Under the pieces are notes generated by a model. It had not been told where the DNA came from. It searched no databases and worked only from the letters and a program-made list of their open reading frames with translations. A program made the translations under genes and the position numbers. From a virus (lineage: Duplodnaviria; Caudoviricetes), in IMG/VR virus record IMGVR_UViG_3300036797_000054, positions 58,745-122,744 of that record: a DNA stretch of 64,000 nucleotides; one strand, given 5' to 3'. How positions within the stretch are numbered: position 1 is the first letter of the stretch; every line of letters begins with the position of its first letter. This document shows positions 29,124 through 59,649 of this stretch, piece after piece.

Positions 29124-29192
29124 ATGGCGTTGATCGTTCGCCAGCGGACGTGGGGATGGTCGCGGACGTGGGAATGGTCGCGCCAGGCGTAG
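29124..29192 (+). CDS. leaderless 22-aa Trp-rich mini-ORF (MALIVRQRTWGWSRTWEWSRQA)
   Basis: TAGCCT-N7-ATG, identical for 16 nt to the start at 9981; in-frame 18-nt tandem repeat. Confidence 0.45.
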   Translation: MALIVRQRTWGWSRTWEWSRQA

Positions 29193-29273
29193 CCGCCGGA
29201 GGTCGCCCGTTCAAGCCGGGCCGCGCGAGCACATCGCGCGTAGCTCAGTTGGTAGAGCACCGGCGGCTGCGCC
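29186..29273 (+). ncRNA. circularly permuted tRNA-like RNA (YrlA/Y-RNA-like topology)
   Basis: Order: 14-bp stem 5' strand, AGGTC, T-arm GCCCG-TTCAAGC-CGGGC, acceptor CGCGCGA-gcaca-TCGCGCG, TA, D-arm GCTC-AGTTGGTA-GAGC, A, 14-bp stem 3' strand. Confidence 0.85.
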
Positions 29274-29303
29274 GCGCGCTACACTGCCGCCGCTGCTGAT
29301 CGC

Positions 29304-29440: not shown

Positions 29441-29536
29441 GCGCCGGTAGCTCAGTGGTCAAACCTGACCCTCGGGTTGGGGAAGAGCAGCGGTCTTTCA
29501 AGCCGCAGGTCGGCGGTTCGATCCCGCCCCGGCGCA
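29441..29536 (+). tRNA. tRNA with anticodon TTC (Glu) carrying a hairpin insertion in the D-loop
   Basis: Acceptor GCGCCGG/CCGGCGC, anticodon arm GCGGT-CTTTCAA-GCCGC, T-arm GGCGG-TTCGATC-CCGCC; 31-nt D-loop; no encoded CCA. Confidence 0.8.
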
Positions 29537-29581
29537 TCCCCCGTGACGGTGGCGGCCTTGGATCTCTGCCGTCACGGGGGA
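29537..29581 (+). promoter_or_regulatory. 16-bp hairpin between the tRNA 3' end and the pth2 RBS
   Basis: TCCCCCGTGACGGTGG/CTGCCGTCACGGGGGA; 3' arm overlaps GGAGG. Confidence 0.65.
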
Positions 29582-29588
29582 GGGGTCG

Positions 29589-29969
29589 ATGCCTGACCCG
29601 ACGATCCCCATCGTCTACATCGTGTTCAACGGGCCGCTCGGCATGTCGCCGGGCAAGATGACGGCGCAGGCGTTCCAGCTCGCCGAGCGTCTGTTTCGAG
29701 CGGCCGATTCCTACGACGTGCCGATGGGAGAGCGCGTTGACCACCTACAGCGGGTAGGCGCGTGGCGCAAGCACACGACGACGATCACGCGCGTCGCCAA
29801 GACGCCGACGATGTGGGAGCGCGTCAAGGCCGAGGTCGAGGGCGTCGTCATGGTGGACGAGGGCTACACCGAGGTCGAGCCGGGCAGCGAGACGTGCTTC
29901 GCGTCGTGGCCGATGCTGGTGGGCGACGCGCCGAAAATCCTCTCGAACGCCAAGGTGCCGCTGCTGTAG
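29589..29969 (+). CDS. peptidyl-tRNA hydrolase, Pth2 family
   Basis: MSPGKMTAQA...W...DEGYTEVEPGSETC matches the Pth2 MxxGKxxAQ and DxGxT motifs. Confidence 0.85.
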   Translation: MPDPTIPIVYIVFNGPLGMSPGKMTAQAFQLAERLFRAADSYDVPMGERVDHLQRVGAWRKHTTTITRVAKTPTMWERVKAEVEGVVMVDEGYTEVEPGSETCFASWPMLVGDAPKILSNAKVPLL

Positions 29970-42272: not shown

Positions 42273-42345
42273 GCGGGCGTAGCTCAACTGGTAGAGCCCC
42301 GGGCTTTTAACCTGTGGGATGCGAGTTCGACTCTCGTCGCCCGTA
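42273..42345 (+). tRNA. tRNA-Lys(TTT)
   Basis: 73-nt cloverleaf: GCGGGCG/CGCCCGT, GCTC-AACTGGTA-GAGC, loop CTTTTAA, GCGAG-TTCGACT-CTCGT; no CCA. Confidence 0.85.
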
Positions 42346-58332: not shown

Positions 58333-59649
58333 GTGAGCGTGAGAACGATGAAAGTCGCGATCCGTGGCGACGTGGATGAGAAGGCGATCGCGCAGCTCGA
58401 ACGCTGCGCCCGCGCTGGCCGCGCCCCGCTGGCCGCGCAGATGGCCGACGGGCACTACGGCTACTCCATGAGCATCGGGGGGGTGATCGGCTTCCGCGAG
58501 TACGTCTCGCCGTCCTCGGTGGGCTACGACATCGGCTGCGGCAACAAGGCTGTGCTGACGAACTTGACCGTTGGCGAGATCGATGGCGACGTTGGACGCA
58601 TCATGGACGAGATCACCAAGCGCATCGACTTCGGCGGAGGGCCGGGCTACAAGCCGACTGCGGAGCGCGCCGATCATCCGGTGCTCGATGAGATCCGCGA
58701 GGCCGACTACGTGCCCCAGCGCGCGCTCGCCGAGCTCGCCGCAGCCCAGCTCGGCTCGATCGGGGGCGGCAACCACTACGTGGACCTGTTCGCCGACGAG
58801 CACGGCCGCGTGTGGGTCGGCGTGCACTTCGGCTCGCGCGGCTTCGGCCACCGCACCGCCGAGGAATTCCTGACGCTCGGCAAGACGCTCGACATCAACC
58901 GCGAGAACAGCGAGGACATGGACTCGCCTCCGACGCTGCTGCCCATCGAGTCCGGCCTGGGACAGTCCTACGTCGCGGCGATGGAGCTCGCAGGGCGCTA
59001 CGCCTACGCCGGTCGCGATGTTGCGGTCCAGCGCGTGCTCGGCATCCTCGGGGCCGAACCGCTGCACGAGGTCCACAACCACCACAACTACGCCTGGCAC
59101 GAGCAGCACGAAACCGACACCGGCCTGGAGATGCTGTGGGTCGTGCGCAAGGGCGCGACGCCAGCGTTCCCAGGGCAGGAAGGCTTCGTGGGCGCGACCA
59201 TGGGCGAGCCGAGTGTGATCCTCGCTGGCAAGGGCGGCCCGGCCGCATCCATGCTGATGTTCTCCACCGTGCATGGCGCTGGCCGCGTGATGAGCCGTAC
59301 GCGCGCCGCGGGTAAAACGCGCAAGCGCTGGACGTGCAACACTCGCGACTGCAACTGGTTCCAGCCGCCGCGAACGCACAAGCCCGAGGCGTGCCCGTCC
59401 TGCGGCAACACGAGCATGACCAAGCGCTTCGTGAAAATCAGCGAGGGCGAGATCGACTGGTCGCAGACGCTGGCCGGTCTGCGCGCGAGCGGCATCGAGC
59501 TGCGCGGCGGCGCGGCCGACGAGGCACCCCTGGCCTACAAGCGCCTCGATCAGGTGCTCGACGCCCACTCCGACACGATCGAGATCCTGCACACACTGAC
59601 GCCTCTCGGCGTGGCGATGGCGGGTTCGGAGATCGCGGCCGATGACTGA
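58333..59649 (+). CDS. rtcB: RtcB-family RNA ligase with Zn-ribbon insertion
   Basis: DGHYGY, GYDIGCG, GSIGGGNHY, VHFGSRG, HNHHN, RKGAT, HGAGR, DEAPLAYK. Confidence 0.95.
   Translation: MSVRTMKVAIRGDVDEKAIAQLERCARAGRAPLAAQMADGHYGYSMSIGGVIGFREYVSPSSVGYDIGCGNKAVLTNLTVGEIDGDVGRIMDEITKRIDFGGGPGYKPTAERADHPVLDEIREADYVPQRALAELAAAQLGSIGGGNHYVDLFADEHGRVWVGVHFGSRGFGHRTAEEFLTLGKTLDINRENSEDMDSPPTLLPIESGLGQSYVAAMELAGRYAYAGRDVAVQRVLGILGAEPLHEVHNHHNYAWHEQHETDTGLEMLWVVRKGATPAFPGQEGFVGATMGEPSVILAGKGGPAASMLMFSTVHGAGRVMSRTRAAGKTRKRWTCNTRDCNWFQPPRTHKPEACPSCGNTSMTKRFVKISEGEIDWSQTLAGLRASGIELRGGAADEAPLAYKRLDQVLDAHSDTIEILHTLTPLGVAMAGSEIAADD

Follow-up and report, generated by a model that had tools for sequence, protein, structure and literature searches.

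A five-armed tRNA(UUC) gene in an uncultured phage and its counterparts in Solirubrobacterales

The four-armed cloverleaf with a D-loop of 8-11 nt is among the most constant structures in biology, and the elbow of the tRNA is touched by RNase P, the ribosome and many enzymes. A fifth helical arm is present in class II tRNAs (Leu, Ser and bacterial Tyr), where it occupies the variable region (positions 44-48), serves synthetase identity and stays in the mature, translating molecule; ribosomes thus tolerate an extra helix. Short structured insertions within the D-loop of tRNA genes are known as non-canonical introns in archaea, where they are associated with a bulge-helix-bulge motif, EndA and RtcB, and the YrlA (Y RNA-like) RNAs of family RF02553 are tRNA-derived RNAs borne by phages and bacteria that are permuted and have no anticodon loop. 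Here, we describe a 96-nt tRNA(UUC) gene whose D-loop carries a fifth arm. The gene lies in a 64,000-nt stretch (the window) that forms the last 64 kb of the 122.7-kb IMG/VR record IMGVR_UViG_3300036797_000054 (G000; estimated to be 80% complete, approximately 67% G+C), derived from an uncultured virus of the Caudoviricetes with a genome of about 150 kb. Our comparisons make it probable (approximately 0.7) that this element is a working GAA decoder of the host type that serves the virion genes.

Structure and conservation of the fifth arm

The gene retains all four standard tRNA arms (7-bp acceptor, 4-bp D, 5-bp anticodon and 5-bp T; Table 1) and all tertiary and conserved nucleotides (U8, A9, A14, G18, G19, A21, U33, A37, G53 and C61). 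The Rfam model RF00005 matched it with 61.9 bits (E 5e-11, model positions 1-71, gathering score 29), in agreement with a preliminary description of the sequence that had called the acceptor, anticodon and T arms canonical. The alignment needs one 25-nt insertion after G18-G19-U20, and the D-loop is 31 nt long instead of the approximately 7-11 nt of an ordinary tRNA. The same description had read CCTGACC-CTCG-GGTTGGG in this 31-nt loop after the conserved GG, which we confirmed: the insert consists of CAAA, CCUGACC-CUCG-GGUUGGG and GA, and when folded alone it forms a 7-bp hairpin of -11 kcal/mol. In the folding of the whole tRNA, the five-arm cloverleaf reached -45.0 kcal/mol, against an unconstrained minimum of -46.6. 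An alternative pairing, GGUCA/UGACC, which had been suggested to sequester the conserved GG, does exist in the phage copy; however, inside the cloverleaf it reaches -39.2 kcal/mol, 5.8 kcal/mol weaker than the fifth arm, and it is absent from the host-type copies, and we rejected it. Unlike the class II arm, the phage arm lies in the D-loop at positions 20a/20b, beside the elbow, and the variable loop is short (AGGUC, 5 nt). ARAGORN did not call the five-armed gene; its sole call in the window was an ordinary tRNA-Lys(UUU).

Long-D-loop tRNAs were searched for with the pattern TAGCTCAGTGGT-N14-44-GAGC-N20-30-GGTTCGA in viral contigs and one genome per GTDB species. The search for phage tRNAs with D-loop hairpins, an idea already present in the preliminary description, matched 18 viral contigs, about eight of which share the same body and arm. 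Bacterial genomes gave at least 120 matches, and among the matches listed nearly all were from Solirubrobacterales, Solirubrobacteraceae or Thermoleophilia metagenome-assembled genomes (MAGs). The same 31-nt D-loop design occurs in more than 100 genomes of Solirubrobacterales, the probable hosts of the phage (hereafter the hosts); the insertion is thus present in relatives. Again among the matches listed, 117 of the 127 parsed copies had the anticodon UUC, and the D-loop was exactly 31 nt in almost all. The arm is mostly closed by a stable UNCG or GNRA tetraloop. The window's gene shares the family's UUC anticodon on a GCGCCxG acceptor, the body with a GCUC/GAGC D-stem, and A73.

Covariation was assessed in an alignment of 24 distinct 96-nt sequences, the window's included, which required no gaps. 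The arm is formed by columns 24-30 and 35-41, and its register behind GGU(C/A)AA is constant; 97.6% of the cells of this helix were paired, with changes on both sides in five of the seven pairs, and the other four helices were 100% paired. For the whole structure, the observed values were reached by none of 500 shuffles, and sliding the partners by 1-3 columns lowered the pairing from 99.4% to 37-52%. The phage arm (CCUGACC/GGUUGGG, CUCG loop) and the commonest host arm (GGUUCUC/GGGAGCC, UUCG loop) have almost no sequence in common but the same length and register. Outside the arm, the phage tRNA is about 90% identical to the bacterial members (78-84% overall), and its anticodon stem-loop is that of the commonest host variant, common to 37 genomes. 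These patterns indicate that the fifth arm is a real, selected structure.

The arms of three phage copies (from the window and the viral records L019 and L020) begin with C and end with G, whereas the bacterial arms begin with G and end with C. This difference suggests that the phage gene belongs to an older phage lineage rather than to a fresh capture from a host. At the DNA level, the phage had no match in the phage collection searched.

Several copies of the five-arm body carry other anticodons: CCU in L004/L007, UUU in L013 (45-nt D-loop), ACC in L037 and UGU in L075 (48-nt D-loop). Such non-UUC copies occur in viral contigs and a few MAGs, and most of these anticodons correspond to codons expected to be rare in high-G+C genomes. 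Long structured D-loop insertions were also seen in tRNAs of unrelated viral contigs (L005:2159-2244, L003:1738-1832 and L008/L012; one is a 212-kb record), and one unrelated viral tRNA(GUU) has a 43-nt D-loop with a 9-bp hairpin; D-loop arms may thus be more widespread in phages. In a full-text search of a limited library, no bacterial or phage tRNA with an arm in its D-loop was found described.

Host tRNA sets, amino-acid identity and codon demand

The complete G001 chromosome contains 46 tRNAs, in which the Glu-type body (D stem GUCC/GGAC) occurs with CUC only and the five-arm gene supplies UUC; the likewise complete G005 chromosome, with 48 tRNAs, has the same arrangement. A combined pattern and BLAST search found one Glu-type body and one five-arm gene in each of five host genomes. 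These tRNA sets indicate that the five-arm tRNA is the only conserved UUC tRNA, and hence the only conserved reader of GAA, in the hosts checked. ARAGORN miscalled the G005 gene as "Pro ggg", and its calls for other relatives were "Pro", "Ala" or undetermined. Two viral records have comparable sets: L016 (28 tRNA genes and a tmRNA gene) and L019 each encode an ordinary Glu(CUC) tRNA beside the five-arm tRNA as the sole UUC tRNA, which points to the latter filling the Glu(UUC) slot.

Three side observations concern the host tRNA genes. An extra 71-nt tRNA(UUC) with the D-loop AAUGCA (no G18-G19) and the T-loop CUCGUAC was present in one of the five host genomes (G001; L196:101-171). G005 encodes a tRNA with an 8-nt anticodon loop, CUGACGAA, in which ARAGORN reads a four-base anticodon (L296, G005:2020780-2020853). 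In G001 (1448868-1448892) and G002 (2101902-2101925), 24-25 nt from the 3' end of tRNA-Glu(CUC) are repeated 8-13 kb from the full gene; integration of an element into that tRNA gene usually leaves such a copy.

Once the insert is removed, the body of the phage tRNA is nearest to the host tRNA-Lys(UUU) (79-82% identity) and not to tRNA-Glu, in line with the preliminary description, which had noted that the D-arm resembles that of the phage's tRNA-Lys. The tRNA nevertheless resembles a canonical bacterial tRNA-Glu(UUC) (a class I elongator tRNA, RF00005) in its cloverleaf, tertiary nucleotides, CUUUCAA loop and reading of GAA. In Escherichia coli, tRNA-Glu is identified by U34, U35, C36 and A37 together with an augmented D-helix (U11-A24, U13-G22··A46 and the absence of nucleotide 47) (PMC9976931). 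All four anticodon-loop determinants are present in the phage tRNA. Each of the nine host chromosomes carries one glutamyl-tRNA synthetase (GluRS) gene, and the phage carries none.

We then compared host orthologues with the GAA codons masked. GAA sites aligned with GAG-encoded Glu in 47% of the cases, with Asp in 12% and with Lys in 3%; 144 of the 785 GAA sites fell in columns with a conserved GAG-encoded Glu, and columns with a conserved Lys were outside the nine most frequent categories printed. In the hosts' own lysyl-tRNA synthetase (LysRS) genes, the codon for the conserved Glu in the motifs ETP, PEFT and ALEYG is GAA. These alignments indicate that GAA is glutamate in the hosts and, because GAA codons stand at invariant glutamate positions, the five-arm tRNA most likely carries Glu. 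Reading of GAA as Lys, which the Lys-like body might have implied, was ruled out because the GAA sites align with Glu and Asp and not with Lys or Arg. The doubt first expressed about the amino-acid identity is thus narrowed.

Late-gene-matching tRNAs are known from T4-like phages and large mycobacteriophages, in which they read codons over-represented in structural genes relative to the host. In the present phage, GAA makes up 22.5% of the Glu codons and AAA 23.2% of the Lys codons, compared with 15.3% and 13.0% at the host loci. The virion module lies at 34-56 kb of G000 (L303 and L304), upstream of the window, and six PHROG-annotated genes served as the virion set. In these genes, GAA accounted for 13/27 Glu codons in the major head gene, 21/32 in the tail sheath gene, 8/13 in the gene for a tail tube-like protein, 33/81 in the tape measure gene, 12/21 in a tail protein gene and 21/36 in the baseplate wedge gene. 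The GAA share was 51% in the virion set and 19% in all other phage genes (odds ratio 4.4, p 3e-22), and the AAA share was 38% and 21%, respectively, while CAA, GAT, AAT and the G+C content of third codon positions (GC3) did not differ. Non-virion genes within the module were GAA-poor (XkdN-like chaperone, 1/21; glycosyltransferase, 2/31). The five-arm tRNA and the tRNA-Lys(UUU) are the only standard decoders found in the phage and read exactly the two enriched codons, which makes it probable that the tRNA serves virion-gene decoding. Compared with the tRNAs of T4-like phages and mycobacteriophages, this one copies a lineage-specific, non-standard architecture; the codon bias involves GAA and AAA alone and tracks membership of the virion, not of the late module as a whole.

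The pattern recurs in an independent phage, G008 (L316-L318), whose complete 52-kb genome also encodes a five-arm tRNA(UUC). The structural arm of its genome uses GAA for 55% of Glu codons versus 26% elsewhere, and AAA for 49% of Lys codons versus 16%. Individual GAA counts were 24/30 for the sheath, 33/47 for the tape measure and 45/53 for a virion protein, in contrast to 7/48 for the maturation protease and 7/36 for the terminase. In the hosts (loci L021-L140), a crude hydrophobicity test separated exported from cytoplasmic-like proteins; by this split, GAA made up 38% of the Glu codons of signal-peptide-like proteins and 13% of those of cytoplasmic-like proteins (odds ratio 4.3, p 1e-66), with CAA, GAT and GC3 unchanged. 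Host EF-Tu genes use GAA for only 7-22% of Glu codons, so that the host bias is not one of highly expressed genes. A general A/T or expression effect was ruled out by these EF-Tu values and by the unchanged GC3, CAA, GAT and AAT. Thus, proteins that leave the cell, whether exported or built into virions, prefer GAA.

Neighboring RNAs and a second LysRS

Two tRNA-like RNAs precede the five-armed tRNA in tandem (Table 1). In the first, a T arm, a closed acceptor-like hairpin and a D arm follow one another between the two halves of a long stem; its folding energy is -69.2 kcal/mol (z -4.7), and it ends 156 nt upstream of the five-armed tRNA. The second has an acceptor (GCGCCCG/CGGGCGC) and a D arm that are those of the host five-arm consensus, together with an odd T-loop, GUGUCGAGG, and looks like a five-arm paralogue that may have turned into a non-decoder. 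The five-armed tRNA itself has open acceptor ends and a perfect, standard anticodon arm in place of the closed acceptor hairpin and Ro-binding stem that characterize YrlA. No TROVE/Rsr gene was found in the 122-kb record. A search for promoters and terminators around the RNA cluster found no consensus promoter or intrinsic terminator.

Relatives of the PTH2-type peptidyl-tRNA hydrolase (Pth2) encoded just downstream were not found in IMG/VR; two metagenomic homologues on short contigs (L213 and L214; 61-65% identity) both follow closely on a tRNA or tRNA-like gene. The one in L213 (696-769) is an odd tRNA without G18-G19 and with the loop GAAGCAA; L214 (1-49) holds the 3' half of a tRNA(UUC), whose acceptor strand is that of the window's tRNA. 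Five other five-arm phages encode neither Pth2 nor RtcB, so that the tRNA is independent of that module, and an obligatory role for it as a part of such a module was ruled out.

Table 1. Positions of the five-armed tRNA(UUC), its arms and the other features discussed (window numbering)
Feature	Position	Strand	Basis or remark
Circularly permuted tRNA mimic resembling YrlA (Y RNA-like)	29177-29285	+	RF02553 41.2 bits, below gathering score 69, E 1e-7
tRNA-like RNA, 23-nt extension of anticodon stem instead of 7-nt loop	29304-29392	+	RF00005 41.6 bits, fold
Five-armed tRNA(UUC) gene, 96 nt, CCA not encoded	29441-29536	+	RF00005 61.9 bits; gap-free alignment to 23 distinct relatives
Acceptor stem GCGCCGG/CCGGCGC	29441-47 with 29529-35	+	Read from sequence
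D stem GCUC/GAGC	29450-53 with 29485-88	+	Read from sequence
31-nt D-loop: AGUGGU (incl. G18 G19), linker CAAA, fifth arm, linker GA, A21	29454-29484	+	Sequence; 31 nt in nearly all of ~120 family members
Fifth arm: 7-bp helix CCUGACC/GGUUGGG, tetraloop CUCG at 29471-29474	29464-29481	+	Folding and covariation
Anticodon arm GCGGU-CUUUCAA-GCCGC; anticodon UUC at 29497-29499	29490-29506	+	Identical to commonest host variant
T arm GGCGG-UUCGAUC-CCGCC, standard T-loop	29512-29528	+	Matched by Rfam model
Discriminator A (A73)	29536	+	Read from sequence
12-bp inverted repeat (long hairpin), no T-run	29538-29582	+	Between tRNA and pth2
PTH2-type peptidyl-tRNA hydrolase gene (pth2)	29589-29969	+	PF01981, E 7e-6, 26.7 bits (cut-off 23); 52 nt downstream of tRNA
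Ordinary tRNA-Lys(UUU)	42273-42345	+	ARAGORN; Rfam 59.9 bits
RtcB RNA ligase gene	58432-59616 (G000 117176-118360)	+	PF01139 141.8 bits and two further segments, one 472-aa frame

All five host chromosomes examined in detail (G001-G005) contain two full-length class II LysRS genes. In the second and divergent one, LysRS2 (L246, L248, L252, L247 and L253), the amino-acid pocket is altered at three positions (E. coli numbering: Y280 to M/F, N424 to S/G and F426 to D/G) but retains E240, E278 and, at 428, either E or D. A role of LysRS2 as a class II enzyme that charges Glu was ruled out on pocket chemistry, given the acidic residues kept. A record classed as viral (L011/G009) contains a five-arm tRNA with the anticodon UGC (L011:2235-2329) and a LysRS2-like gene with similar pocket changes (L254:982-2385). 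The tRNA has no G3:U70 and is therefore unlikely to accept alanine. Transposase and FtsK/SpoIIIE-type genes nearby suggest that L011/G009 is a conjugative or integrative element and possibly not a true phage.

Alternative readings and significance

On the reading that we favor, the phage tRNA would be a copy of a five-armed tRNA(UUC) that replaces the usual tRNA-Glu(UUC) in Solirubrobacterales (soil Actinomycetota, class Thermoleophilia). The arm sits between U20 and A21, in the variable portion of the D-loop; A-rich linkers attach it there, and G18, G19 and all other nucleotides of the tertiary contacts keep their places. If expressed, the phage tRNA probably increases or safeguards the decoding of GAA in late infection, and it would have kept the host architecture in order to be accepted by host enzymes, of which the single, probably non-discriminating GluRS is the likeliest. 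Several points weigh against this reading. The E. coli-type D-arm determinants of tRNA-Glu are missing (C11-G24, C13-G22 and the 5-nt variable loop AGGUC), and charging by GluRS is therefore assumed; compared with a canonical tRNA-Glu(UUC), the phage tRNA differs in this augmented D-helix, which E. coli GluRS uses, as well as in the 31-nt D-loop with its 7-bp helix and in the body nearest to tRNA-Lys(UUU). At 24 bacterial loci (e.g., L039, L059, L062, L083 and L095), the LysRS2 gene precedes the five-arm tRNA gene by 0.1-3 kb on the same strand, which our model does not explain. The phage genes were called with a simple GC3 heuristic, and the missing 20% of the phage genome could hold other tRNAs. 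Finally, the gene follows two non-decoding tRNA mimics in a tandem array, one of them permuted and YrlA-like and the other lacking an anticodon, and pth2 comes immediately after it.

This tandem arrangement could mean that the five-armed tRNA is one of three tRNA mimics that form, with Pth2 and RtcB, a decoy or repair module against host tRNA-targeting defenses and is not mainly a decoder. Anticodon nucleases typically target Lys(UUU) and Glu(UUC) tRNAs, RtcB is encoded in the same genome, and both metagenomic Pth2 homologues are likewise preceded by a tRNA or tRNA-like gene. We nevertheless consider such a role unlikely. In contrast to its two neighbors, the five-armed tRNA has a flawless anticodon arm and has lost none of the tertiary nucleotides; its anticodon stem-loop matches that of the host exactly and hence shows no escape changes; five other five-arm phages manage without Pth2 and RtcB; and the codon bias in the virion genes argues for decoding. 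Moreover, replacing a cleaved host tRNA would still be a decoding role. The RtcB gene, about 29 kb downstream of the tRNA, would also suit the intron at a non-canonical position that the preliminary description had offered as one of two options: the hairpin would be cut out and the halves rejoined, and removal of 25 nt would leave a tRNA of approximately 71 nt with a standard 7-nt D-loop (AGUGGU-A), comparable to the D-loop introns that exist in archaea. However, no bulge-helix-bulge motif is present, the helix being seven continuous pairs flanked by single-stranded CAAA and GA without paired 3-nt bulges; an EndA-type endonuclease (PF01974) was found neither in the phage nor in the nine host chromosomes, and RtcB (PF01139) neither in those nine complete chromosomes nor in five other phages with the five-arm tRNA, which led us to reject splicing by EndA and RtcB. 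An insert of 25 nt is far below self-splicing size, and no ribozyme family matched the insertion site. The setting is bacterial and viral and, unlike in archaeal introns, the length and register of the arm as well as its stable tetraloops have been kept across more than 100 genomes. Excision is thus very unlikely, and the other option of the preliminary description, a permanent extra arm, fits the covarying helix better: given the absence of removal machinery and the pattern of conservation, the mature RNA most likely keeps the fifth arm as a permanent helix. Shielding of the elbow from nucleases as a phage trick is unsupported as it was put forward, since the arm is the hosts' own standard design and therefore not a phage adaptation. 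An assembly error or a decaying pseudogene, which the origin of the window in a metagenome assembly and the missing ARAGORN call might have suggested, is hardly credible, as the same architecture recurs with compensatory changes in more than 100 independent assemblies and each stem and invariant nucleotide is intact.

The linkage to LysRS2 raises the question of whether the five-arm scaffold and LysRS2 are a dedicated pair, with the arm as an identity mark, that loads something other than plain glutamate or serves outside translation. A second full-length enzyme in every one of G001-G005, its remodelled pocket, the gene order at the 24 loci, the presence of both components on the L011/G009 mobile element and the Lys-like tRNA body would all fit such a pair. 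It is, however, distinctly improbable: GAA sites behave as Glu sites, including those in the LysRS motifs themselves, and the acidic pocket should bind a basic amino acid and not Glu; the linkage is confined to one subclade and could be inherited gene order, and neither this phage nor seven other five-arm phages carry such a gene. A broader possibility, to which we give a modest minority weight, is that GAA is a marked codon and the arm a handle for a dedicated factor (LysRS2 being a candidate) that controls or alters GAA decoding, and that the phage tRNA would free virion synthesis from it. This could take the shape of a bldA-like translational regulon, of an isoacceptor whose charging persists through starvation or of a residue modified on the tRNA. 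The bldA tRNA-Leu(UUA) of Streptomyces is likewise the sole reader of a rare A-ending codon in a high-G+C actinobacterium, with the codon concentrated in one gene class; however, bldA has an ordinary structure, and its codon TTA is regulatory and very rare, in contrast to the 13-38% of Glu codons that are GAA here. The marked-codon reading keeps its weight mainly because of the GAA preference of exported and virion proteins. The decoder of the host type remains the reading that we prefer.

The present analysis newly ties the tRNA to the codons of virion genes in two phages, finds neither RtcB nor EndA in the host chromosomes, gives direct evidence for GAA as a Glu codon and shows the tRNA to be independent of Pth2 and RtcB. 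Standard tRNA finders miss or misname the gene, and the genomes consequently look unable to read GAA. We know of no phage isolated for Solirubrobacterales, an order abundant in soil, and the five-armed tRNA would be a strong host marker for its phages. The link between the tRNA and the GAA bias offers a concrete test of why synonymous codons split between gene classes. Overall, it appears that a whole bacterial order, together with phages for which that order is the probable host, relies on a tRNA with a fifth helix beside the elbow to read a common sense codon.

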